From the sequence record PV660454: DNA of 52,979 bases; one strand, written 5' to 3'. The notes under the pieces were generated by a model. The model ran no database searches. It was not told the origin of the DNA and saw only the letters and a program-made list of their open reading frames with translations. Source of the DNA: Escherichia phage LF82-11. This document shows positions 4,249 through 52,899 of this stretch, one piece after another (position 1 is the stretch's first letter; the number at the start of each line of letters is the position of its first letter). The position numbers were made by a program, and so were the translations under genes.

Positions 4249-5375
4249 AAATGACCACTAAACAACGCTATGATAGCGCACCAATCAAGGCACGATTCGA
4301 TTCAAACGGATATCTTCATGATGAGCCAATCATCGCGCGAATCGGCATTCAATCGTACATGAAACCAGATGGAACCATGCAGCGTGAATTTCGCCCGGCT
4401 AGCGAGGTATTCAGCGAGAAGTCAATGAAGTCTTTTCAAGGGATGCCGATTGTTGAAGGTCACAAGGAGATCACCGTTAAGAACGCGCGAGGTGAGGTTG
4501 TTGGCGCGGTGAGCGGAGCGGCGCGCCGTGACGGAATCGGCTTGCTGTGCCCGATCGTAATTCACGATGGTGAATCAATCGAAAGCGCCAAACGAGGCGA
4601 TGCTGCTGAATTATCCGTAGGCTACAAAACAAACGATATTCATCGCGCCGGGTGGGGCAACGTGGTTACTGGTGAGTACGTATTCAAAGACGATGCGGAA
4701 ATGATGGAGAAGATTTTCCCCAGCGGAACCACGATGAGTGACGAATGGGAAGAGTTCGACGTGCTTCAAACAAACATCGTGCCCAACCACATCGCGAAGG
4801 TTCACAAAGGCCGCGCCGGAATCGCTCGTTTAAACCTTGACGGCTCCGAGGAAATCAAGTACGATTCAAGCGTTGACAATCAACCATCAAAGGAAAATGT
4901 TATGACCGTTAAAATTAAGATCGACTCCGCAGAAGTGGAAGTAACACAGGATGTGGCAAACCACATCGAAGCGCTGAAGGCAACCGCAACGGCAGCCAAA
5001 ACAAAGGCTGATACTCTGGAAGCAGAGCGCGACTCACTGAAAGTTAAGGTTGACGGCCTCCCGGCACTGATTGAAGCCGCGATCGCCGAAGCGAAAACAA
5101 AAGCCGATGCAGAAAACGAAATCAAAACTTTCGCCACTGAAATTGGCGTTAAGTGTGACGGCCTGGATAACAAAGCGATTAAAGTTGCAGTTATCAAAGA
5201 GGTGTTAGGTATCGACGCAGCAGAGAAAAGCGATGCTTATATTGATCAGTCATTTGAAATCGCGCGCGATTCTGATAAGATGGCGGCTAATCGCGTTAAA
5301 ATCTCCGGCTCTAACGGCAAGGAAGACGGCGCTGATACTGGCATCCCTGATGCTCAGGCTCGTTTCCGCAAGTAA
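4245..5375 (+). CDS. scaffolding protein / prohead protease-like
   Basis: 376 aa; C-terminal Ala/Lys/Glu-rich predicted coiled coil; precedes capsid genes; alternative ATG at 4251 has better RBS. Confidence 0.4.
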   Translation: MKMTTKQRYDSAPIKARFDSNGYLHDEPIIARIGIQSYMKPDGTMQREFRPASEVFSEKSMKSFQGMPIVEGHKEITVKNARGEVVGAVSGAARRDGIGLLCPIVIHDGESIESAKRGDAAELSVGYKTNDIHRAGWGNVVTGEYVFKDDAEMMEKIFPSGTTMSDEWEEFDVLQTNIVPNHIAKVHKGRAGIARLNLDGSEEIKYDSSVDNQPSKENVMTVKIKIDSAEVEVTQDVANHIEALKATATAAKTKADTLEAERDSLKVKVDGLPALIEAAIAEAKTKADAENEIKTFATEIGVKCDGLDNKAIKVAVIKEVLGIDAAEKSDAYIDQSFEIARDSDKMAANRVKISGSNGKEDGADTGIPDAQARFRK

Positions 5376-15726: not shown

Positions 15727-18700
15727 ATGAATAAAAAAGTGTTAGTGCATGGCTCAAAGGGTGGTTCACCAAAGCCGCACACGCCACAGGAAATGGAAGA
15801 CAACTTAATTTCAATCAACAAAATTAAGGTGCTTCTGGCTATTTCTGACGGTGAGATTGATCCTGATTTCAGCCTTAAAGATCTGTATCTCAATGACGTT
15901 CCTGTGCAGTCGAAAGAAGGAACGATGAACTACGATGGCGTGATTGCCGAGTTTAGACCGGGAACGCAAACGCAATCTTACATTCAGGGTTTTACTGACA
16001 CGGCAAGCGAGGTGACTGTAAACCGAGCGCTGAAGCAAGATAACCCTTTCATCTTCCCGGTAACGAACAAAAGCATTTCAGCGGTACGCGTTAAGATCTT
16101 CATGCCTCGCGGCGTAAAGACAGAATCAAATGGAGATATGGTTGGCGTTAGGGTTGAATACGCGATTGATTTCGCGGTTGATGGTGGATCATACCAGGAG
16201 GTTCTTAAGGACGTAATCGACGGTAAGACGATGAGCGGCTACGACAGAACCAAACGGATTAACCTTCCTGAATTCAACGATCAGGTATTGGTGCGCGTGC
16301 GTCGTGTAACGATGGATTCAACAGACGCAAGATTGATTGATGAGATCAGCGTGCAATCATATGCTCAAGTTGTCGATGCTAAATTCCGTTACCCCCTGAC
16401 CGGGCTGTTATACGTTGAGCTGAACAGCGCAATGTTCCCACAAATGCCAAATATCAGCGTCAAGAAAAAATGGAAGCTGGTGAAGGTTCCGAGCAACTAC
16501 GATCCAGTAGCGCGCGAGTATCACGGCACATGGGATGGCAGTTTTAAACAGGCATGGAGCAATAACCCTGCATGGGTGCTTTACGACTTGATCACCAATC
16601 AGAGATACGGACTCGACCAGCGCGAATTAGGGATTGATGTTGATAAGTGGAGCTTGTACGAAGCCGGGCAGTATTGCGATCAGCTCGTGCCGGACGGCAA
16701 AGGCGGAACAGAACCGCGCTACCTGTGCGACGTTGTGATTCAGTCTCAGATTGAAGCGTACACGCTAGTGCGTGATATTTGCTCTATCTTCCGTGGGATG
16801 AGCTTTTGGAACGGTGAAAGCCTATCTATCGTGATTGACAGGCCGCGTGATGCGTCTTACATCTTCACGAATGATAACGTGGTGGGCGGTTCATTCTCCT
16901 ACACGTTCGCCAGTGAAAAGAGCATGTACACAACATGCAACGTGACGTTTGACGATGAGCTGAACATGTACCAGCAGGACGTTGAAGCTGTGTTTGATCT
17001 GGATGCGTCTATTCGATTCGGGCACAACCCGACAAGCATAACGGCGATCGGATGCACGCGACGGAGTGAGGCAAACCGCCGAGGGCGCTGGATTCTGAAA
17101 ACGAACTTGCGCAGCACGACAGTTAGCTTTGCTACCGGGCTTGAAGGTATGATCCCAATGGTGGGCGATGTGATTGCGGTTGCGGATAACTTCTGGCAAA
17201 GCAATCTGACGCTTTCCCTTTCCGGGCGATTGATGGAGGTTTCAGGCATTCAGTGCTTCACTCACTTCCGAGTTGATGCGCGGCCAGGTGATTTCATTAT
17301 CGTTAACAAGCCTGATGGTAAGCCAGTGCGCCGCACGATTGCTAACGTATCAGCAGACGGAAAGACCATTGAACTAAATATCGGCTTCGGCTTTGCGGTT
17401 CAGCCAAACGCGGTATTCGCGATTGACCGTCAAGATCTGGCGCTTCAGCAGTATGTTGTTACCGGAATCAGCAAGGGTGATGGAGACGAGGAGTTTACTT
17501 ACTCGATCACGGCGGTTGAGTACGACCCGAACAAGTATGACGAGATTGATTACGGCGTTAACATCGACGACAGGCCGACGAGCATCATCGACCCTGACAA
17601 CATGCAGCCGCCAGAAAATATCAGCGTTTCGTCATATTCCAGGATCGTGCAGGGCATGAGCGTTGAGACGATGGTTATCGGGTGGGATAAGGCGCAGTAC
17701 GCGAGCACATACGATGTTCAATGGCGCAAGGATAATGGTAACTGGATTAACACTCCACGCACCGCAAACACAGAGGTTGAGGTTGAAGGCATCTATGCTG
17801 GCGTTTACCACGTCCGAGTAAGATCGACTTCAGCGGCTGGTAACTCTTCGCCATGGTCAAGCGTAGTGACGGTGAGCTTAACTGGCAAGGTTGGAAAGCC
17901 AGGAGCGCCGACGAGCATCACGGCGAGCACGGATGAGGTGTTTGGTATTCGCGTTAAGTGGGGTATGCCAGCAGGATCAGAGGACACGGCCTACATCGAG
18001 CTTCACCAGTCGAAAGACGGAACGCCGGACAATGCAAGCCTGTTAACGATGATTCCTTATCCTCAGTTTGAATACTGGCACGCGGTGCTCCCGGCTGGTT
18101 ATGTGAACTGGTATCGGGCGCGAGCAGTTGACCGAATCGGCAACGTCTCTGATTGGTCTGACTTCGCACGCGGCATGGCTTCGGATGATGTGGATCAGAT
18201 TTTGGACGTTATCAAGATTGACATTGAGGACAGCGAGATTTTCAAAGAGCTTGCCGAAAATGCAGTTGATACCGCCAACAAGATCAAAGACCAGGCGCAG
18301 ACGGATATTCAGAACGCATTAGCGAATGACTACAACCTGCAATGGACTCGCAAGCAGAACGGCGCACGTAAGGCCGAATACGGTCAAGCGGTGATTCTCA
18401 TTGCCAATGAGACAGAAGCTCGTGTAGCGGCGATTGAGGAGCTTAGAGCGTCAATCAATGACGATATCATTGCTCAAATCAAAACGATTCGAGAAGCGGT
18501 AGCAAATGAGGAGGAGGCACGAGTTAAGGCGGTTCAGGAGCTTGACGCTAAGTTTGCCGGGCAGATTGGAGACTTGCAGACAGCAACAGAGGCGAGCGTA
18601 TCGCGTCTGGATGAGGCGATCGCAAATGAGTCAGAGGCAAGAACTCAGGCAATTTCACAACTCGATGCGAAGTTCCAGGGCGTCATTGATGGAGTTAAGG

Positions 18701-19278
18701 CCGACACTGAAGCCAGCATTACGCGAGTTGATAAAGCCATTGCTAGCGAGACTCAAGCCAGGGTTGAGGCAGATACAGCGCTTGGTGTTCGGGTTGGTAA
18801 CACTGAATCCGCCATCACGCAAAAGCTTGATTCATGGATTCAGAACGGGCAGCCGGGAGCGTCGTATAACGTCAAGTTGGGTATCAAGTACAACGGGCAG
18901 GAGTATAGCGCAGGGATGGGGATGCAGTTGGTTAGCGATCAGTATGGCGTTAGATCGCAAATCCTGTTTGACGCTGACCGATTCGCAGTTGGCAAGATTG
19001 AGAATGGCTCTATTCGTCAGTTGCCGTTTGTGATTGAGGGTAATCAGGTATTCATTCGTGATGCGCTGATTAAAAACGGCTCCATCACTAACGCAATGAT
19101 CGGAAACGTCATTCAGTCAAACAACTATGTTGCTGGTTGGGCTGGTTGGAGAATGGACAAGAACGGAAACCTTGAGATTAACGGCAGCGCCGGAAACGGA
19201 AGGCTGACCATTAACAACAACATCATTGCCGTATATGATGGTAACGGTGTGTTAAGAGTTCGAATGGGATTGTTCTAA
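15727..19278 (+). CDS. central tail fibre / host specificity protein (lambda gpJ-like)
   Basis: 1183 aa, last gene of tail module. Confidence 0.8.
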   Translation: MNKKVLVHGSKGGSPKPHTPQEMEDNLISINKIKVLLAISDGEIDPDFSLKDLYLNDVPVQSKEGTMNYDGVIAEFRPGTQTQSYIQGFTDTASEVTVNRALKQDNPFIFPVTNKSISAVRVKIFMPRGVKTESNGDMVGVRVEYAIDFAVDGGSYQEVLKDVIDGKTMSGYDRTKRINLPEFNDQVLVRVRRVTMDSTDARLIDEISVQSYAQVVDAKFRYPLTGLLYVELNSAMFPQMPNISVKKKWKLVKVPSNYDPVAREYHGTWDGSFKQAWSNNPAWVLYDLITNQRYGLDQRELGIDVDKWSLYEAGQYCDQLVPDGKGGTEPRYLCDVVIQSQIEAYTLVRDICSIFRGMSFWNGESLSIVIDRPRDASYIFTNDNVVGGSFSYTFASEKSMYTTCNVTFDDELNMYQQDVEAVFDLDASIRFGHNPTSITAIGCTRRSEANRRGRWILKTNLRSTTVSFATGLEGMIPMVGDVIAVADNFWQSNLTLSLSGRLMEVSGIQCFTHFRVDARPGDFIIVNKPDGKPVRRTIANVSADGKTIELNIGFGFAVQPNAVFAIDRQDLALQQYVVTGISKGDGDEEFTYSITAVEYDPNKYDEIDYGVNIDDRPTSIIDPDNMQPPENISVSSYSRIVQGMSVETMVIGWDKAQYASTYDVQWRKDNGNWINTPRTANTEVEVEGIYAGVYHVRVRSTSAAGNSSPWSSVVTVSLTGKVGKPGAPTSITASTDEVFGIRVKWGMPAGSEDTAYIELHQSKDGTPDNASLLTMIPYPQFEYWHAVLPAGYVNWYRARAVDRIGNVSDWSDFARGMASDDVDQILDVIKIDIEDSEIFKELAENAVDTANKIKDQAQTDIQNALANDYNLQWTRKQNGARKAEYGQAVILIANETEARVAAIEELRASINDDIIAQIKTIREAVANEEEARVKAVQELDAKFAGQIGDLQTATEASVSRLDEAIANESEARTQAISQLDAKFQGVIDGVKADTEASITRVDKAIASETQARVEADTALGVRVGNTESAITQKLDSWIQNGQPGASYNVKLGIKYNGQEYSAGMGMQLVSDQYGVRSQILFDADRFAVGKIENGSIRQLPFVIEGNQVFIRDALIKNGSITNAMIGNVIQSNNYVAGWAGWRMDKNGNLEINGSAGNGRLTINNNIIAVYDGNGVLRVRMGLF

Positions 19279-19283
19279 TAGAA

Positions 19284-19312
19284 AAGGGAGCCTTGCGGCT
19301 CCCTCTTTTTTT
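19284..19312. terminator. bidirectional terminator
   Basis: GGGAGCC-ttgc-GGCTCCC flanked by T-runs on both strands; between convergent genes. Confidence 0.5.
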
Positions 19313-19643
19313 ACATCACTTTATTGTAGATAACCGGGCTTCGGCTGGTTTGCTGGGTAATCATGTCAAGCTTGTATTCAGCGCCGCGATTCCACTCGAA
19401 GCGTAGCGTATAAGTGTTTACGTCGCCGTAGCACATTACGTGTTTGAACTTGCGCAGGTGCTTATCAAATATCACGTTTGTGCTTTCTTCAATATTCACC
19501 GTCCGATCCTGGCAGTTTACAACCGCCACGGTTGAGCCAGTAAGAGACATTCTGGAAGCGTCAACCGGATATCCGATATTAACGTTCAAAGCCATAGCGT
19601 TTAAAGGAGCTAAGAGAGCCATAGCGAGCATGATTTTTTCCAT
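19311..19643 (-). CDS. secreted/periplasmic small protein (signal peptide)
   Basis: N-terminus MEKIMLAMALLAPLNAMA with AMA cleavage-type site; start moved to ATG 19643 with GAGGAA RBS (track start is TTG). Confidence 0.4.
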   Translation of the reverse strand: MEKIMLAMALLAPLNAMALNVNIGYPVDASRMSLTGSTVAVVNCQDRTVNIEESTNVIFDKHLRKFKHVMCYGDVNTYTLRFEWNRGAEYKLDMITQQTSRSPVIYNKVM

Positions 19644-19717
19644 TGGTGTTTCCTCGATTCGTTTATTTAAATTGATTATATCCACCAATCAGGGCGCGTG
19701 CTTAGCAATTCGTGCTA

Positions 19718-20368
19718 TTAGTTCCACCCAAGGAATCGAGCCATTGGAATCTTTAGGTTTCCGCGACCGTTGAAAATATCATTAAACCCTCGCTGATTTC
19801 GTCTGATCCATGTAGTCTGCAACTCCGAGCCAGTCCAGCGCATGAGGTTGCCAGAGTAACCAGAGGCAACGCCATCCGTTGACATTTCACCCATGCAGGA
19901 CTCCCACAGAAAGAATGGGTTGTAACCAGGTGATACGCTGGCAACGTTACCCTCAAGAGGCCAATTCCCGGCAACCTCAAGGAAGCCAGTTACACGAGGC
20001 ATTGAGGCAGCGCCCAAAGCAGACCAGATCAGTTGCCCGGAACCGTCGAACACGTCAAGCACGCCAGATGGAAAGTTTGCGTTTCTGGTTGTCCTGATCA
20101 CGCGGATTGAGTTTGGTAGGAACATATCAGATCCCGGAAACCCCCACGCGCCGTTAGAAAGAAATTGCACCCAATGCAAATATCCGTCTTGCTTCCTCGT
20201 GTTTTGGTTTAGGTAAGCCAGTGAGCTTATGTTGCCAAAAGGTGTGTTTAGGTTGTAGTCACCAGTATTTAAATATGACGGGTTGAAAGATGAGTGGTAG
20301 ATCGTGTGTTTCTGATCTGAGTTAATCATCATCGCCCCGGCGTTATTGTATACCTCAAAACCAGGCAT
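19718..20368 (-). CDS. Asn/Gly/Ser/aromatic-rich protein, paralogue of downstream gene
   Basis: 216 aa starting MPGFEVYNNAG; internal DGSGQLI; good RBS. Confidence 0.4.
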   Translation of the reverse strand: MPGFEVYNNAGAMMINSDQKHTIYHSSFNPSYLNTGDYNLNTPFGNISSLAYLNQNTRKQDGYLHWVQFLSNGAWGFPGSDMFLPNSIRVIRTTRNANFPSGVLDVFDGSGQLIWSALGAASMPRVTGFLEVAGNWPLEGNVASVSPGYNPFFLWESCMGEMSTDGVASGYSGNLMRWTGSELQTTWIRRNQRGFNDIFNGRGNLKIPMARFLGWN

Positions 20369-20377
20369 ATTGCCCCC

Positions 20378-20677
20378 TCAGTTAAATTTGTAAATTTCGA
20401 TATCCATCGTCACATCGTTAAACGGGTTGCTTGTTGGTAGGTAGATAACATCAACAGCATTCTCACGCGTTACGCAAGCGTAAGCACTCCCTATGTAGAT
20501 GTTTGCGTATTTGATGCAAGCAAACGAGTTGTAACCGTTTATTCCGACAACAGCAAAAGACACGATCGAAGTCGAGCGCGGGAACACGATTTGCTGACGA
20601 TGCACAAAGCGAGTGCTGAAATCTCCGAGATCCACAATCAGATTTCCCGACCCATCCCATGCTTGTAAACCAGGCAT
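20378..20677 (-). CDS. hypothetical protein, paralogous N-terminus
   Basis: 99 aa starting MPGLQAWDGSGNLI; near-identical RBS/start context to 19718..20368. Confidence 0.4.
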   Translation of the reverse strand: MPGLQAWDGSGNLIVDLGDFSTRFVHRQQIVFPRSTSIVSFAVVGINGYNSFACIKYANIYIGSAYACVTRENAVDVIYLPTSNPFNDVTMDIEIYKFN

Positions 20678-31977: not shown

Positions 31978-33114
31978 ATGTCACTGAAGAAAATCACCGA
32001 CGAGCAGTTAAACGCCGAGCGAGAGTCGGGTAAAACTTACCGCCAGATCGCGGAAGAGTACGGAATGAACATACGCACCGTCGAGGCTCGCGGCGCACGC
32101 CTGGCTAAGAAAGGTTTCGGTCACGGTAACGGCGATGCATCGCGATTTGTTCCAGAAGGCTTCATGGTTAAGGGCACATCAACCATGCACCGCGCGAACG
32201 GAGAGGTTATCGTTAGCTGGACGAAAACCAATCAGGATCATGAGAAGTTAGCCGCCATGCTTGAGCACGCGATCGAGGCGTTTTGCGTTGAGCTTCCACG
32301 CGCAGCCGCTACACCTTCCAACGTTGGTGAGGTGATGGAGAACCAGCTCGCGCTTTATCCTGTATTCGATCTGCATATCGGTGCAATGGCTCATAAGCAT
32401 GAGTGCGGCGAGAACTACTCAACCGATATTGCCGAGAAGGTTTTGGGCGATTTCTTCAAGTACGCTGTGAACGTTGCGCCGAAGGCGAAGAAGGCGGTTG
32501 TGCTGGTTGGCGGTGACTACCTCCACTCTGACGGCCTGGACGCTGTAACACCCGCAAGCGGTCACGTTCTGGATCAGGACTCACGTTACGCTAAGCTGGT
32601 TCACGTTGCCATTCGCTCACTCCGTCGCGGCGTTGCGCTTCTGCTTGATAAGCATGAAGAGATTGAGATCCAGATTATCGAAGGCAACCACGATCAGGCG
32701 GGTATGATTTGGCTACGCGCTGCAATGGCGGCATACTTCGAAGATGAGCCGCGCGTCACGGTTGACACATCGCCTATGATCCTTCACCGTACCAAGTGGG
32801 GCAAAACGCTGTTAGGCTACACTCACGGTCACACGATGAAGAAAGCAGAAACCCGCCTCCAGGCGCTGGCTACTGACTTCCGTTCTGAGTTCGGCACGAG
32901 TGAATTCGTTTATACTCACTCAGGGCATTGGCATCACCAGACGCTTACAGAGCACACCTTAGGCATTGACGAGGTTCACGGTCAGTTAGGTGCCAAAGAT
33001 GCGTATGCGGCTCGCGGTGGATGGCGCTCATATCGCCAGGCGGCGGTAATTGTCTATGATAAAGAATTTGGCGAGGTAGGCCGATTCGTTTATCGTCCTC
33101 AGATGAGCAAATAG
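31978..33114 (+). CDS. calcineurin-like metallophosphoesterase with N-terminal HTH
   Basis: DLHIG, GGDYLHSDG and GNHD motifs; N-terminal GKTYRQIAEEYGMNIRTVEARGARL HTH-like segment. Confidence 0.55.
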   Translation: MSLKKITDEQLNAERESGKTYRQIAEEYGMNIRTVEARGARLAKKGFGHGNGDASRFVPEGFMVKGTSTMHRANGEVIVSWTKTNQDHEKLAAMLEHAIEAFCVELPRAAATPSNVGEVMENQLALYPVFDLHIGAMAHKHECGENYSTDIAEKVLGDFFKYAVNVAPKAKKAVVLVGGDYLHSDGLDAVTPASGHVLDQDSRYAKLVHVAIRSLRRGVALLLDKHEEIEIQIIEGNHDQAGMIWLRAAMAAYFEDEPRVTVDTSPMILHRTKWGKTLLGYTHGHTMKKAETRLQALATDFRSEFGTSEFVYTHSGHWHHQTLTEHTLGIDEVHGQLGAKDAYAARGGWRSYRQAAVIVYDKEFGEVGRFVYRPQMSK

Positions 33115-33154
33115 CACTTTTTGTTAAAAGCCGATCGCGTTGGTCGGCTATACT
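33112..33154 (+). promoter_or_regulatory. box-promoter module
   Basis: TAGCACTTTTTGTTA, 22 bp with GCCGA/TCGGC hairpin, TATACT. Confidence 0.5.
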
Positions 33155-33183: not shown

Positions 33184-33288
33184 ATGAAATCTATCTTAAT
33201 CAACGTGGTCTGTTTTGCATTGGGCGCTGGCGTAGTTGCTTCCAGCCTTTGGGTTATCAATCTCGCTTCAGTATTCAAGGGCTTCTAA
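33184..33288 (+). CDS. small hydrophobic membrane peptide
   Basis: 34 aa, GAGGAG RBS, one predicted TM helix; not in ORF track (<60 aa). Confidence 0.3.
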   Translation: MKSILINVVCFALGAGVVASSLWVINLASVFKGF

Positions 33289-33594: not shown

Positions 33595-33813
33595 ATGAGG
33601 GAAGTAATCAATGCAGTAACCAGCGCCACAGGCGGCGCGTCACTAACCGGAGCGGCTACAGGTCAGTTAGTTATTGCTGGCGCAACGTTCGTGCTATTCG
33701 TTGGCTTCGGTGTTTGGGGTGCTTACTGGAAATACCAGGACAGCAAAGCAATTCGTGAAGCCCTCAAATCCGGCAATCTGGAAGAGGCGATCAAACTAAA
33801 CGGGAAAAAGTAA
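33595..33813 (+). CDS. holin (single-TM, pinholin-like)
   Basis: 72 aa, one TM helix, immediately upstream of SAR endolysin; ATG 33595 with AAGGA RBS (track start is TTG). Confidence 0.5.
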
Positions 33814-33814
33814 C

Positions 33815-34300
33815 ATGAAGAGATTAGTAGCCGGGGCTGCATTCGGTGCAGCTCTCGCCTTAACGCCTCCCCTGGTGGAGCAGGTTGAAGGCATTCATTA
33901 CGATCCATACAAAGACATTGCCGGGATCTGGACGGTGTGCGCTGGCATTACCGGGAGCGATGTAGTGCTAGGGAAGCGATATACTCAGCGCGAGTGCGAT
34001 GCGTTGCTTTTCAAGCATATCGAGATCGCAAGGAAGGAAGTTGACAAGCGCGTAAACTATCCGATCCCGGACACGATGCGCGCAGCAATGTACAGCTTCA
34101 CGTTTAACGCTGGCACTGGCGCTTTTCGTGGCTCTACAATGCTGAAGCTTATCAATCAGGGCAAGTTGCCTGAGGCATGTAATCAGCTTTGGAGCTGGAC
34201 TTACTACACCAACCCGAAGACCGGGAAAAAAGAGAAGTCGAAGGGGTTGAAGAACCGCCGCGCCTTTGAATACAACTACTGCATGAAGGAATTAAAATGA
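33815..34300 (+). CDS. SAR endolysin (lysozyme, T4/P1 Lyz-like)
   Basis: N-terminal Gly/Ala-rich weakly hydrophobic SAR-like segment followed by E...D...T catalytic-triad spacing. Confidence 0.65.
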
Positions 34301-34728
34301 AACGCGTAAGCAACTCAATGCTGATCTTCGTAACCATCCTCGTGTTCGTTGCAGTGACTTCGCTATCTGGTTGCTCAACGGCTGGCGCTCTGACTGGTTT
34401 GATCGGCAGCAAGCCGGAAATCTCAGCACAGGCCGGAGCGGAAAACACGAAACAGACGGTTGGCCTAAACAACAAAGTGGATCAGTCAAGCGAGGTGGAA
34501 ACCACGATTCGTGATTCAAAGGTTGGAAAGGTTGACAGCTCTAACGGAAAGAAGACCAGCGCATCAAGCATCACGGCTGAAACCATCAAGGCCGACAAGA
34601 TCGAGATTCGCAATAGTGATGGAGAGGCGTTTGGTATTGCGGCTGGTTTCTTCGTCGCTGGTCTGATTGCAGGTTCAAGCGCCGTTGCATACTTAGCAAC
34701 GAGACGCAGAAACAACAAAGGAGCCTAA
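34297..34728 (+). CDS. unimolecular spanin (T1 gp11-like)
   Basis: N-terminal lipoprotein signal with lipobox LSGC plus C-terminal TM helix. Confidence 0.6.
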
Positions 34729-41629: not shown

Positions 41630-41672
41630 ACTATAGCCGAAACATCCTGAGTGGTTTTAGCAAAAAGTGCTA
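41630..41672 (-). promoter_or_regulatory. box-promoter module (minus), leftward early promoter
   Basis: TAGCACTTTTTGCTA on minus strand, 22 bp, TATAGT. Confidence 0.5.
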
Positions 41673-43525: not shown

Positions 43526-43830
43526 TGATTTTGAATGACCGAGAGGAGCTACAGGAAGCCGTGAGACTGGCGCTAAAATCAGACGTGCCATTTATCGAAG
43601 TTGTGCTTTGCGTGGCTGCCAGCCTCGATGTACGGCCCCGTGTGGCTGCTTTCATGGTTCACTCTAACACCTTCGATATGGCTGGCACATTCCAGGGTGA
43701 TAAATTCCTTGAATTCTTGATGCAGCTAACCGATAAGTTCGAAGCCATGCATCCTGACCGGATAAGCGCCAGTGGGCAGATCCTGATCGAGGAGTTCACC
43801 AACTTTGTGATTCGCGGTACATGGCGATAG
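43522..43830 (+). CDS. hypothetical protein
   Basis: 102 aa, ATGA-coupled. Confidence 0.3.
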   Translation: MMILNDREELQEAVRLALKSDVPFIEVVLCVAASLDVRPRVAAFMVHSNTFDMAGTFQGDKFLEFLMQLTDKFEAMHPDRISASGQILIEEFTNFVIRGTWR

Positions 43831-43870
43831 CACTTTTTGTTAAACGTGTGCCGGGCTAATCCGGCATACT
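43828..43870 (+). promoter_or_regulatory. box-promoter module
   Basis: TAGCACTTTTTGTTA starting at stop codon, 22 bp hairpin, CATACT. Confidence 0.5.
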
Positions 43871-43900
43871 GTCACCACACCAACCAATCAAGAAGTCAAC

Positions 43901-44179
43901 ATGAAGACGTTAAAAGAGATTTTGGCAGAAATTGACGAGGCTGCGCTCAAGGATAATGACGACGAGGCCACAACAAGCAAGAAGATCCTGACTTGCGGAG
44001 CCACTCACATTGCGCAAGATGCAGACGGCGCAGTATTCGCATTCAGGGGTAAGCCAACCGCCACGAAAATTGAGGATATGACGGAGTGGTTTAGCGGCGA
44101 AAAAGGTGAAGTGCTGTTATTCTGCGCAGACCTGGAAAAGCCAGAAGATTGGACGCAGTGCATTTGGGAGCTGCCATAA
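43901..44179 (+). CDS. hypothetical acidic protein
   Basis: 92 aa ORF. Confidence 0.3.
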   Translation: MKTLKEILAEIDEAALKDNDDEATTSKKILTCGATHIAQDADGAVFAFRGKPTATKIEDMTEWFSGEKGEVLLFCADLEKPEDWTQCIWELP

Positions 44180-44499
44180 TGAAAAAGTTTGTCGGATCGT
44201 GTTTGCTGGTTTCTGTCCTGGCGCTGGCGTTCATCGCTCTCGCAGGGTGTGACGACTCAACCCGCGTGCCTCGTGAGCAGCGTAGCAAGGTGCGGGTCAC
44301 AACGGCTGAATCCGGGCGCGTGCAGGTGCGCAAGATCAGCGAATTCCGTGACGACCTGGCTTATGACAGCTATCGAGGCGTGTACATCATCACGGACACT
44401 GAAACCGGGCAGGAGTTCATAGGCGTTAGCGGTGTTGGTATCAGTGCTATCGGGCAACACAATTGCGGCAAAAACTGCTGGAAGAAAGATGAGAGATAG
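44179..44499 (+). CDS. lipoprotein (Asp at +2, +3)
   Basis: MKKFVGSCLLVSVLALAFIALAGC lipobox then CDD...; start at ATG 44179 overlapping upstream stop. Confidence 0.5.
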   Translation: MKKFVGSCLLVSVLALAFIALAGCDDSTRVPREQRSKVRVTTAESGRVQVRKISEFRDDLAYDSYRGVYIITDTETGQEFIGVSGVGISAIGQHNCGKNCWKKDER

Positions 44500-44539
44500 C
44501 ACTTTTTGTTAAAACTGCCCGGAGCGATTCGGGCATAAT
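44497..44539 (+). promoter_or_regulatory. box-promoter module
   Basis: TAGCACTTTTTGTTA, 22 bp with GCCCG/CGGGC hairpin, CATAAT. Confidence 0.5.
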
Positions 44540-44562
44540 GATTTCACACCAAACGAGAGGAA

Positions 44563-45183
44563 GTGAAAATGTTTAAATTAGTTCGCGGCGTAACAACTCC
44601 AAATGACATTCTTATCCATGTTGCATCCGGCGCACGCTATGACGTTCCTGACAACACCAAACAGGTTGCAGTAGATCAGGATGGAGAAATATACGCCTAT
44701 GAATCCGGCATGGCTAAAGTAGAGCACGGGCACACCGGATGGAGTGATAACGGATATGATGGTTTTGTCAAGTGCATCGGTAAGATTCCGAGCGATCAGG
44801 AAAACATGCCGAAAGGTGTATTCCCTGGATGGCTGGACTCATTGACAAGCATCGACGCGCTTAAGCTTTCGCCGGAATACGCCCCGCTAGGCAGTAAGAA
44901 AAAGATTGAGATCGCAACACCCGTTCGCATTGGCGGCTCACAACTCCGCGCTCGTGTCACGGAATATCTTGACCGCAAGATGAAGGATAACGTTGTCGGA
45001 TCTGTTCGGGCGCGCCACTTCCTTTCTGACATTCGAAGCGAGGGCTTCACGTTCGAGAACTACCGCACAGCCGATCTCGTCCTGGCTCTGGTTACTATCG
45101 GGTGCGATCTCAAGCTGGCTCGTGACTATGCAGCATTCCGCGCCATTGATGATGCGGTTCACTTTGTGCGAGGTGAGGCATGA
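44563..45183 (+). CDS. hypothetical protein
   Basis: 206 aa, RBS GAGAGGAAG. Confidence 0.35.
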   Translation: MKMFKLVRGVTTPNDILIHVASGARYDVPDNTKQVAVDQDGEIYAYESGMAKVEHGHTGWSDNGYDGFVKCIGKIPSDQENMPKGVFPGWLDSLTSIDALKLSPEYAPLGSKKKIEIATPVRIGGSQLRARVTEYLDRKMKDNVVGSVRARHFLSDIRSEGFTFENYRTADLVLALVTIGCDLKLARDYAAFRAIDDAVHFVRGEA

Positions 45184-45311
45184 ACCTAACAACTCTTGAG
45201 GCGATCATTGTCGCTACCGCTGGCTTACTCGTTGCTGGCATCATCATTGAGCAAATTGCCTATACCTGGTTGCAGATTGTTAAGCGCCGGAAGGAGAAAG
45301 GTGATGATTAA
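45180..45311 (+). CDS. small single-TM membrane peptide
   Basis: 43 aa, hydrophobic core then basic tail KRRKEK; not in ORF track. Confidence 0.3.
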   Translation: MNLTTLEAIIVATAGLLVAGIIIEQIAYTWLQIVKRRKEKGDD

Positions 45312-45408
45312 TGCAATCGGCGCGGCATGTCTTCTTGCTTCCGTCACTGTGGTTGCGGTTGGCGCTGTTTGGCTAATGGCAAAAATATTGCGTGAGATTG
45401 ACGAATAG
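45304..45408 (+). CDS. small single-TM membrane peptide
   Basis: 34 aa from ATG 45304 within track ORF 45196..45408. Confidence 0.3.
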   Translation: MINAIGAACLLASVTVVAVGAVWLMAKILREIDE

Positions 45409-45448
45409 CACGAATTGCTAAAACGGCATGGCTCCTGAGTGGTATCAT
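45406..45448 (+). promoter_or_regulatory. box-promoter module
   Basis: TAGCACGAATTGCTA, 22 bp with CGGCATG/CATGCCG hairpin, TGgTATCAT. Confidence 0.5.
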
Positions 45449-45480
45449 GCCGTTACACCAAACAAACAGGAGTCACCCAA

Positions 45481-45846
45481 ATGAAAGTTAAATGCATTAG
45501 TTCAGACGTTTTGCTTGATGGTTACTACACCCCAGGTAGAGTCTACCGATTAAGGCGAGAAAGGGGCAAAAGCTATAGAACCGTTAAATCAAACAGAGGC
45601 GTTGATCTTGGTGTTATCCACGACCCATTAAAAAGAGGTCGGTTTTTCGTTGCTGGATTTGAACGTTGTGTGTTTGATTCGGCTCCGCACCGATTCGTGA
45701 AGCGCAACCAAAGCGCCGCGCTGGGGCAGATTGAGATCGACTATACGCGATGCAAGCGCAGCATTCGCAATCAGGCTCGCAACATCGCAAAAGAGCACTT
45801 CTCGTGCGGCAAGCTTGAGAAGATTGCGCGAGGCTATAAGCGATAG
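45481..45846 (+). CDS. paralogue-family protein (MKVKC)
   Basis: start moved to ATG 45481 with GGAG RBS; MKVKCISS...YTPGRVYRL. Confidence 0.4.
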   Translation: MKVKCISSDVLLDGYYTPGRVYRLRRERGKSYRTVKSNRGVDLGVIHDPLKRGRFFVAGFERCVFDSAPHRFVKRNQSAALGQIEIDYTRCKRSIRNQARNIAKEHFSCGKLEKIARGYKR

Positions 45847-49508: not shown

Positions 49509-49805
49509 ATGAACACTATCAAAAAGTTGACTCCAAACATGGCAACCAAAATCAAGTACGAGATCCCGGAGGATGGCACATTCTTAGCCGTCTGGACTTA
49601 TCGCGAGATCCCGTACTCCGGTACTTATCAATGGCGAAACGGCGAGCTTGCCGTGTGGGTTGATGGCGTTGGCTGGGAAATTGCCGGGCATGGAGCGGCG
49701 GAGGACTATTACGATTTCAACTGCCTCGTGTCTATGGCTAGTGGTGAGAATTACGGCGGTGCTTGTCACTTTGTTGCGGTTGTAGTGGTTGAGGAAACAG
49801 CGTGA
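49509..49805 (+). CDS. hypothetical protein
   Basis: 98 aa from ATG 49509, RBS AAGGA. Confidence 0.3.
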   Translation: MNTIKKLTPNMATKIKYEIPEDGTFLAVWTYREIPYSGTYQWRNGELAVWVDGVGWEIAGHGAAEDYYDFNCLVSMASGENYGGACHFVAVVVVEETA

Positions 49806-49975
49806 AGACTTTTATTATTTTCCTAGTTGGCGCTTGCATGGTTAGCGTTTCTGATAACTTCACAGTTTTCGTTGGCGCTGCGATGGTGTCGTGGGCTTAC
49901 TACCGATGCGGAAAGGCTGACGGAATAGCGGAAGGTAAACGCCAGGCGCTGGCATCCGGCACTAAGTTAAAGTAG
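49802..49975 (+). CDS. possible small membrane protein (GTG start)
   Basis: 57 aa with two hydrophobic segments; ends in TAG that begins next box; not in ORF track. Confidence 0.2.
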   Translation: MKTFIIFLVGACMVSVSDNFTVFVGAAMVSWAYYRCGKADGIAEGKRQALASGTKLK

Positions 49976-52665: not shown

Positions 52666-52899
52666 ATGCTGAATTCAATTTTGTTTATCGTCCTGGGTGT
52701 GATTATTGGCGTTATCGTCGTTGTTGCGTGGGCTGGCCTGTGGTCGCGAAAGCTACTGGCAAAGAACCAATTCGCCTCAGCGCGCTTCGATACGAAATCA
52801 AAAGAATGGCGCATTTGCGGCAAGTACGCAAAGATCGCACAGGAGTTGGTAGACATTCGCGAAGGACGAAAGCCTGGCGCGATTAAGTACATCGACTGA
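52666..52899 (+). CDS. N-terminally membrane-anchored small protein
   Basis: 77 aa, N-terminal hydrophobic helix ILFIVLGVIIGVIVVVAWAGLW. Confidence 0.3.
   Translation: MLNSILFIVLGVIIGVIVVVAWAGLWSRKLLAKNQFASARFDTKSKEWRICGKYAKIAQELVDIREGRKPGAIKYID

Follow-up and report, generated by a model that had tools for sequence, protein, structure and literature searches.

Lipoproteins and tiny membrane proteins are commonplace products of the early and accessory regions of phage genomes, and several factors located at the cytoplasmic membrane or in the periplasm, such as Ltp of Streptococcus thermophilus phage TP-J34 and Imm and Sp of phage T4, act in post-adsorption exclusion. T1-like phages carry exclusion factors of the Cor type, and the Cor locus of T1 contains membrane-protein companions (PMC13164509). 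In small siphoviruses, exclusion factors, those of the Cor type included, adjoin the tail-tip gene J and are tied to receptor identity (PMC13164509, PMC11990801). In this study, we analyzed a locus in a stretch of 52,979 nucleotides from Escherichia phage LF82-11 (PV660454), the whole of which is referred to as the window. The locus encodes a lipoprotein of 106 amino acids (aa) and, downstream of it, a 204-aa cytoplasmic protein and two tiny membrane peptides, which we call TM1 (43 aa) and TM2 (34 aa). It consists of two independent accessory cassettes, each headed by a family-wide promoter-like repeat. We tentatively propose that the lipoprotein of the first cassette is a receptor-independent effector of post-adsorption exclusion or protection, and we put the probability of this package as a whole, the two cassettes and the effector together, at about 0.35.

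Organization and distribution of the two cassettes

The window was 100% identical to the genomes of Escherichia phage LF82-12 (PV660455.1) and LF82-40, both of 52,979 bp, and therefore represents a whole genome. These phages are virulent Drexlerviridae isolated on E. coli LF82, which form a new genus cluster whose best match in the ICTV virus taxonomy is Vilniusvirus NBD2 (PMC12509680). Every open reading frame (ORF) of the locus was found where an earlier reading of the bare sequence, the original prediction, had placed it, and each was deposited as "hypothetical protein" in PV660455.1. The locus lies upstream of the terminase gene in an arm of small non-structural genes on the plus strand (42.3-52.9 kb), in which the run of genes is interrupted by intergenic repeats of about 70 nucleotides (nt). 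The genes of the surrounding block are small, mostly without an assigned role, and reshuffled among relatives. As had been predicted, the locus was separate from the lysis cassette (holin, endolysin and spanin; 33595-34728), from which it is 9.5 kb away.

The original prediction had treated the three membrane genes as one cluster interrupted by an unrelated 206-aa gene. This grouping did not stand, because the intergenic repeats split the locus in such a manner that the lipoprotein belongs to the preceding cassette, whereas the supposedly unrelated gene heads the cassette of the peptides. The first cassette comprises a repeat, a 92-aa gene and the lipoprotein gene; the second comprises a repeat, the 204-aa gene, TM1, TM2 and a closing repeat, and successive genes within each cassette overlap (Table 1). 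The middle gene itself was present, and it overlaps TM1. It can be read as 204 aa from an ATG at 44569 or as 206 aa from a GTG at 44563, and the shorter form is favoured since its homologues begin with MF.L.

The two cassettes also differed in their distribution among relatives. The second recurs in metagenomic contigs and in the Vilniusvirus relatives HazelMika, NBD2 and KLB19. Six metagenomic contigs (L012 to L017) carry a 205-217-aa protein, a 63-73-aa protein and then a 37-43-aa transmembrane peptide, and in phage HazelMika the corresponding order is 209 aa, 63 aa and a 40-aa transmembrane peptide. In phages NBD2 and KLB19, a protein of about 180-195 aa is followed by a 34-aa transmembrane peptide (unannotated in NBD2). 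The window phage has no 63-aa gene in its second cassette. The lipoprotein gene follows the 92-aa gene in L012, L013 and L016 and also lies upstream of the second cassette in L017, but it is missing from the equivalent neighbourhood in L014 and L015; the 92-aa gene is kept in L012 to L016 whether the lipoprotein gene lies downstream or not. Conversely, the Changchunvirus phages PaulSarasin, PHB17 and W011D have the lipoprotein and lack the cassette of the 204-aa protein and TM1. These differing distributions indicate that the lipoprotein and the 204-aa/TM1 cassette are inherited independently, and the lipoprotein, being optional among otherwise syntenic relatives, is an accessory gene. The locus is an ordinary, uncharacterised accessory locus and a new member of a common class of phage lipoproteins and tiny membrane proteins.

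Table 1 Features of the locus and examples of the repeat motif in the window.
Feature	Position	Strand	Remarks
Promoter-like intergenic repeat before cassette 1	43829..43900	+	motif AGCACTTTTTGTTAAA, hairpin with -10-like hexamer, Shine-Dalgarno site
92-aa cytoplasmic protein, first gene of cassette 1	43901..44179	+	conserved LTCGATHIAQD...CVWELP; stop overlaps lipoprotein start (TAATG)
106-aa lipoprotein precursor	44179..44499	+	phage-borne family ending DER; residues ~43-106 form a small predicted beta domain
Signal peptide and lipobox LAGC	44179..44250	+	Cys24 codon at 44248-44250; next codons Asp+2, Asp+3
Promoter-like intergenic repeat dividing cassettes 1 and 2	44498..44568	+	motif copy
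204-aa cytoplasmic two-domain protein, first gene of cassette 2	44569..45183	+	
TM1, 43-aa single-pass membrane peptide	45180..45311	+	basic tail KRRKEKGDD; start overlaps stop of the 204-aa gene (ATGA)
TM2, 34-aa hydrophobic peptide	45304..45408	+	tail KILREIDE; start overlaps TM1 end
Promoter-like intergenic repeat closing cassette 2	45407..45480	+	precedes next gene at 45481
Motif copies (examples)	43829-43844, 44498-44513, 45407-45422, 33113-33128		
Motif copy (example)	41656-41671	-	

Export signal and predicted sorting of the lipoprotein

The sequence features of a lipoprotein were taken to be a positively charged n-region, an uncharged hydrophobic h-region and a lipobox of the form [LVI][ASTVI][GAS]C with the Cys at about position 15 to 35. 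The product of the lipoprotein gene begins with MKKFVGSCLLVSVLALAFIALAG, followed by CDDSTRV. Its basic residues K2 and K3 precede a hydrophobic core without charges, the lipobox LAGC lies at Cys24, and Asp occupies both +2 and +3; all of the above features were found in MKKFVGSCLLVSVLALAFIALAGC (K2, K3, LAGC, Cys24). A rule-based scan of the genome in six frames gave just one further ORF with a lipobox, namely the spanin gene (34297-34728). The lipobox Cys was invariant in all 30 aligned homologues, five of which matched the Pfam entry LPAM_1, and the strict lipobox pattern occurred in at least 152 of 176 retrieved family members. The lipoprotein of the original prediction was therefore borne out in its ORF and its lipobox.

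In E. coli, Asp at +2 is a Lol-avoidance signal, which becomes stronger when Asp, Glu, Gln or Asn follows at +3. Asp+2 was present in every T1-like enterobacterial member, with DD, DN, DS or DG at the two positions; metagenomic relatives had DF, and a copy in an Enterobacter genome had DR. The earlier expectation of inner-membrane sorting hence agrees with conservation in the T1-like enterobacterial branch. Judging from the lipobox, the protein would be exported by the Sec pathway, receive its lipid at Cys24 and be processed by signal peptidase II, and the Lol-avoidance signal at Asp+2/Asp+3 predicts that in E. coli it would stay in the inner membrane's outer leaflet. The part facing the periplasm would then be a flexible tether (about 20 residues) carrying a conserved beta domain (about 60 residues) that ends in a free Asp-Glu-Arg. 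Compared with the copy in L016, the gene showed 17 synonymous and 5 non-synonymous codon differences in frame.

Comparison with Cor, Llp and the tail-tip locus

The lipoprotein resembles Cor (of T1, phi80, N15 and HK022), Llp (T5) and Rtp45 in being a small lipoprotein (about 75-105 aa in these factors) of a virulent siphovirus encoded outside the lysis cassette, and a protective or exclusion role is plausible. It differs from them in sequence, fold, position relative to the J locus, outer-membrane sorting and association with the receptor module. BLASTP against T1 Cor gave a similarity confined to the signal peptide (E 0.12), and no fold similarity to Cor or Llp was observed. T1 Cor has Ser at +2, that is, a sorting signal opposite to the Asp+2/Asp+3 of the window lipoprotein. 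In T1, cor is found about 1 kb downstream of J, beyond two small genes for membrane proteins, whereas the lipoprotein gene is 24 kb away from the J gene of the window (15727-19278). The J-adjacent locus, which in small siphoviruses is the canonical site of receptor-binding as well as exclusion genes, is occupied in the window (19311-20677, minus strand) by three other genes encoding 99, 216 and 110 aa.

Whether a phage carries the lipoprotein does not depend on its receptor-binding module. Ten of 21 T1-like carriers of the lipoprotein were without the LF82-type 216-aa J-adjacent gene, and 41 of the 52 records with this gene were without the lipoprotein. The same was observed within Changchunvirus, in which PHB17 has the J-adjacent module, PaulSarasin and W011D do not, and all three carry close homologues of the lipoprotein. 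Membership of the Cor/Llp group is ruled out by sequence, fold, position, sorting signal and independence from the receptor module. The original prediction had linked the lipoprotein to exclusion lipoproteins known from T1-like phages, and on the same grounds this link was not upheld.

As for the J-adjacent genes themselves, the 110-aa product has a Sec-type signal peptide of the non-lipoprotein kind and its gene is preceded by the intergenic motif, and the 216-aa protein shares 90% identity with its counterpart in BASEL phage JohannLBurckhardt and 60% with the one in IsaakIselin.

The lipoprotein family

A profile search of 1.84 billion cluster representatives matched 474 at E<=1e-3 and 334 at E<=1e-10, and most members were about 90-125 aa long among the 150 representatives listed. 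Close relatives of the lipoprotein numbered 28. The tripeptide DER terminated 154 of the 176 retrieved members, and conserved positions of the family include R47, D58, Y62, R66, Y69, D73, T76, G77, G82, S84, G85, G87, H94, G97, K98 and E105. Searches with hidden Markov models matched phrog_16585 (E 1.3e-10) and phrog_11767 (E 1.9e-5), both of which are groups of phage proteins without an assigned role.

By tblastn, homologues were found in 30 phage records, including several genera of Drexlerviridae. Jumbo phages also carry them (BcepSauron and BcepSaruman of Burkholderia, 2050HW and Yaphecito of Serratia, and vB_ParM-25 of Pectobacterium), and distant members sit amid small ORFs, one of them in a T4-like contig with gp45, gp44, RegA and DsbA as neighbours and another in a lambdoid-like early region with NinB. 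Only 16 loci, in scattered diderm lineages, were obtained among 185,579 species represented by one genome each. At the DNA level, 5,426 complete E. coli genomes gave no match to the gene, and a single match came from a Klebsiella replicon of 339 kb. Judged by these searches, the family is essentially phage-borne and accessory.

Scans of the locus proteins against Pfam, NCBIfam and PADLOC gave nothing meaningful, and a profile search with the lipoprotein against PDB sequences found nothing. The window lipoprotein did not match DUF6440 (PF20037), and 2 of 30 and 2 of 149 relatives matched it weakly (E 2e-3, best 2.4e-4). In a Foldseek search of BFVD, the best and third matches were DUF6440 proteins (best E 0.077, probability 0.94, TM-score 0.31), none of them significant. 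DUF6440, which is annotated on phage proteins in the BFVD matches, was thus the only lead to recur, and a remote one. Because it is itself uncharacterised, membership would not inform the mechanism.

Kinship with GIY-YIG nucleases was also considered and rejected, since the alignment covered 19 columns only with a probability of 20%. Residues 63-89 (44365-44445) contain a GIY..YIG-like hairpin, RGVY-x10-FIG. As RG(V/I)Y-x10-(F/Y)IG, this segment can be aligned to the GIY...YIG hairpin that I-TevI contains, and the 19-residue hairpin accounts for weak matches to SegE_GIY-YIG and UzuA. In I-TevI the hairpin is followed by the catalytic helical half, whereas in the lipoprotein no helices are predicted downstream of the hairpin and the protein carries an export signal.

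The 204-aa protein and the membrane peptides

In the predicted cytoplasmic 204-aa protein, a disordered linker joins a beta domain at the N-terminus to a C-terminal domain of four helices that resembles the SAM-like core-binding domains of integrases; this helical domain may bind DNA. An IMG/VR scan with the alignment of the 204-aa protein found nothing. The 92-aa protein was considered as a possible paralogue of the N-terminal part of the 204-aa protein, but this had no pairwise support; both matched phrog_1972 only weakly.

The two overlapping single-helix peptides of the original prediction were found as described. TM1 and TM2 have one hydrophobic stretch each, with Kyte-Doolittle maxima over 19 residues of 2.31 and 2.32, respectively, and both are preceded by Shine-Dalgarno sites. 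Among the 179 ATG-initiated ORFs of 30-60 aa in six frames of the window, six were equally hydrophobic; three of the six had a Shine-Dalgarno site, all three were annotated, and TM1 and TM2 were among them. TM1 homologues close the same cassette in at least nine other genomes or contigs (HazelMika, NBD2, KLB19 and L012 to L017). In five of the six contigs the peptide is 42-43 aa long and hardly differs from TM1 within the segment EQIAYTWLQIVKRRK, and the sixth (L014, 37 aa) is divergent. The juxtamembrane cytoplasmic segment is the most conserved part of TM1.

In GenBank, TM2 was found by blastn and tblastn in LF82 phages only. Its sole recurrence outside these phages was a copy in L016 (2939-3043), which had been missed by the gene caller. 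This copy had 11 nucleotide differences, corresponding to 8 synonymous and 2 non-synonymous codons in the annotated frame compared with 1:9 and 0:9 in the other frames; for TM1, the same contig gave 4 synonymous codon differences and 1 non-synonymous difference in frame. The substitution patterns of the lipoprotein, TM1 and TM2 relative to L016 show purifying selection; with these patterns and their Shine-Dalgarno sites, TM1 and TM2 are real genes. From the positive-inside rule, TM1 would be oriented with its N-terminus outside and its C-terminus inside, and the topology of TM2 is ambiguous.

Further small hydrophobic ORFs were observed in the non-structural arms, at 33184-33288 (34 aa), 49802-49975 (57 aa) and 52666-52899 (77 aa). 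The first of them precedes the holin gene by about 300 nt, and a single small ORF lies in between. In PaulSarasin, a different hydrophobic peptide of 27 aa (MKEPGQFAIGIFIWLAVIFWIAWIIAR; 2821-2904) overlaps the stop of the lipoprotein gene, and it recurs elsewhere in HazelMika (4482-4565). Genes for tiny membrane peptides seem to move about this arm.

Promoter-like repeats

The motif AGCAC-N-WW-TTG(C/T)TAAA occurred in 25 copies in the window against 0.95 expected, and it contains the palindrome TAGCA-N5-TG(C/T)TA. The repeats start with TAGCAC-N-WW-TTG(C/T)TAAAAC, and their TAG doubles as the stop codon of the gene upstream in most copies of the 43-51 kb arm. Most copies in both arms are co-oriented with the non-structural genes, and 23 copies are present in phage T1. 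Where this was measured, a -10-like hexamer, often with TGn, lies about 22 nt further on within a short hairpin and is followed by the Shine-Dalgarno site. The palindrome, the centre of which would be near -42, looks like a candidate binding site of a dimeric regulator.

These repeats suggest that the genes are transcribed from repeated promoter-like elements in the non-structural phase of infection, and the lipoprotein, called early-expressed in the original prediction, may be expressed early. A generic scan for sigma-70 promoters and terminators was uninformative, as it gave fewer sites than in shuffled sequence. Literature searches turned up neither work on these genes nor data on the timing of transcripts in T1-like phages.

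Proposed function and alternative explanations

Because members of the family are found in T1-like, T4-like, jumbo and lambdoid-like phages infecting many diderms and are uncoupled from the receptor module, the target of the lipoprotein is most likely a conserved component of the periplasm or inner membrane rather than a particular outer-membrane receptor. We propose that the lipoprotein would act as a periplasmic envelope effector that shields the infected cell, for example by post-adsorption superinfection exclusion at the passage of the cell wall or at DNA entry. Ltp and T4 Imm and Sp offer a functional analogy, since the architecture predicted for the lipoprotein resembles theirs in having a small domain that lies at, or is tethered to, the cytoplasmic membrane on its outer side; homology to them was not detected in the family, fold or PDB profile searches. 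The second cassette would couple the cytoplasmic 204-aa protein to one or two tiny inner-membrane peptides, and the conserved EQIAYTWLQIVKRRKEK segment of TM1 would lie at the cytoplasmic face according to the positive-inside rule. The peptides would most probably act with or alongside the 204-aa protein and not with the lipoprotein. For the lipoprotein taken by itself, the exclusion function is held with low confidence and is rated lower than the package as a whole.

Several observations weigh against this proposal. Asp+2 is not universal in the family, being replaced by Asn in Serratia phage 2050HW and by Gly in BcepSauron, and the +2 residue across the family was D in 37 members, G in 29, E in 21 and S in 17, many of the metagenomic members having Gly, Glu or Ser. 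Inner-membrane tethering is therefore perhaps dispensable, and the tether may matter less than the periplasmic domain. The structural model of the lipoprotein, a small beta sheet with a predicted local distance difference test score (pLDDT) of 72, is of moderate confidence only. Regarding timing, copies of the motif are also found in front of replication genes and upstream of the block with the lysis genes. Finally, the fact that the peptides are translationally coupled to the 204-aa gene shows that they are expressed together with it but not that they interact.

Other explanations of the locus were compared with this proposal. The lipoprotein could mask an outer-membrane receptor in the manner of Cor, Llp or Rtp45 with the peptides as helpers, as would suit a small phage lipoprotein encoded outside the lysis cassette of a T1-like phage, a group in which such factors and, at the T1 Cor locus, membrane-protein companions are known (PMC13164509). 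We consider this very unlikely, given that similarity to T1 Cor ends with the signal peptide, that the gene is remote from J and other genes take the J-adjacent place, that Asp+2/Asp+3 predicts inner-membrane retention as against the Ser+2 of T1 Cor, that carriage is independent of the receptor-binding module, that the family extends to T4-like phages and to jumbo phages of Burkholderia and Serratia, and that the supposed helpers belong to another, independently distributed cassette. Alternatively, the lipoprotein could inhibit or modulate, from the periplasm, a hydrolase of the cell wall, such as a tail-associated or host lytic transglycosylase or lysozyme; it would then act like T4 Spackle, MliC/PliC or Ivy and would protect from lysis from without, exclude superinfecting phages or control the timing of lysis. 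The broad host range of the family suits a universal target such as peptidoglycan enzymes, and the 60-residue domain has many invariant polar residues (R47, D58, Y62, R66, Y69, D73, S84, H94, K98 and E105), of which Ser84, in a Gly-rich loop, and Lys98 are 14 residues apart. The inhibitory residues Ser89 and Lys103 of Pseudomonas aeruginosa MliC have the same spacing. The lipoprotein is thus like MliC/PliC as a small all-beta lipoprotein whose Gly-rich loop contains an invariant Ser, with a Lys following 14 residues later, and unlike them by profile: kinship with MliC, prompted by this motif, was dismissed because the profile-profile comparison was negative (hhalign probability 0.3%), and the likeness of the motif may be due to chance. 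Inhibition of a hydrolase is regarded as distinctly improbable.

The genes might instead be host-takeover or fitness accessories that play no part in exclusion between phages, with the lipoprotein disturbing envelope stress signalling, lipoprotein trafficking or a transporter and the peptides inhibiting or activating a host inner-membrane protein, a mode of action shared by numerous small membrane proteins. Their place in a reshuffled block of small genes, their optional carriage and the conservation of the juxtamembrane cytoplasmic segment of TM1 are all in keeping with such a role. Nothing specific speaks against it, but the idea is unspecific, and no target was indicated by the family or domain searches; we regard it as possible, if doubtful. 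That one or both of the tiny ORFs are annotation noise is hardly credible. They are very short, TM2 had no homologue in GenBank phages beyond the LF82 isolates, and the gene caller passed over its copy in L016; against this stand the Shine-Dalgarno sites and start/stop overlaps of both ORFs, the recurrence of TM1 at the same position of the cassette, the excess of synonymous differences of TM2 in the annotated frame only, and the rarity of equally hydrophobic ORFs with a Shine-Dalgarno site (3 of 179).

Returning to the proposed periplasmic effector, a wider claim is conceivable and seems rather unlikely to us, namely that the DER-terminal lipoproteins are an unrecognised and widespread family of membrane-tethered phage effectors acting in the periplasm on a conserved envelope component, for example in receptor-independent, post-adsorption superinfection exclusion or cell-wall protection, across unrelated lineages. 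If the family were indeed a factor of exclusion or envelope protection, it would add a receptor-independent mechanism common to very different virulent phages, and it would also bear on the design of phage cocktails, because the LF82 phages are candidates for therapy and exclusion among the members of a cocktail matters. The breadth of the family and the C-terminal DER make the lipoprotein a reasonable target for a screen by expression and plating. The analysis is also relevant to the annotation of a recurrent "hypothetical" gene: the anatomy of the locus is that of two cassettes instead of one cluster, the tiny ORFs are real genes, and assignment to Cor or Llp would be a misannotation.

Annotation of related genomes

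In NBD2 (KX130668), NBD2_05 is annotated in the wrong frame, and the true ORF is a homologue of the lipoprotein (1590-1907). The gene of the 34-aa transmembrane peptide of this phage (2554-2658) overlaps the end of NBD2_06. In W011D, an 83-aa gene upstream of the lipoprotein homologue (953-1204) is labelled "putative apolipoprotein N-acyltransferase"; this label is implausible at 83 aa and is likely an annotation artefact.

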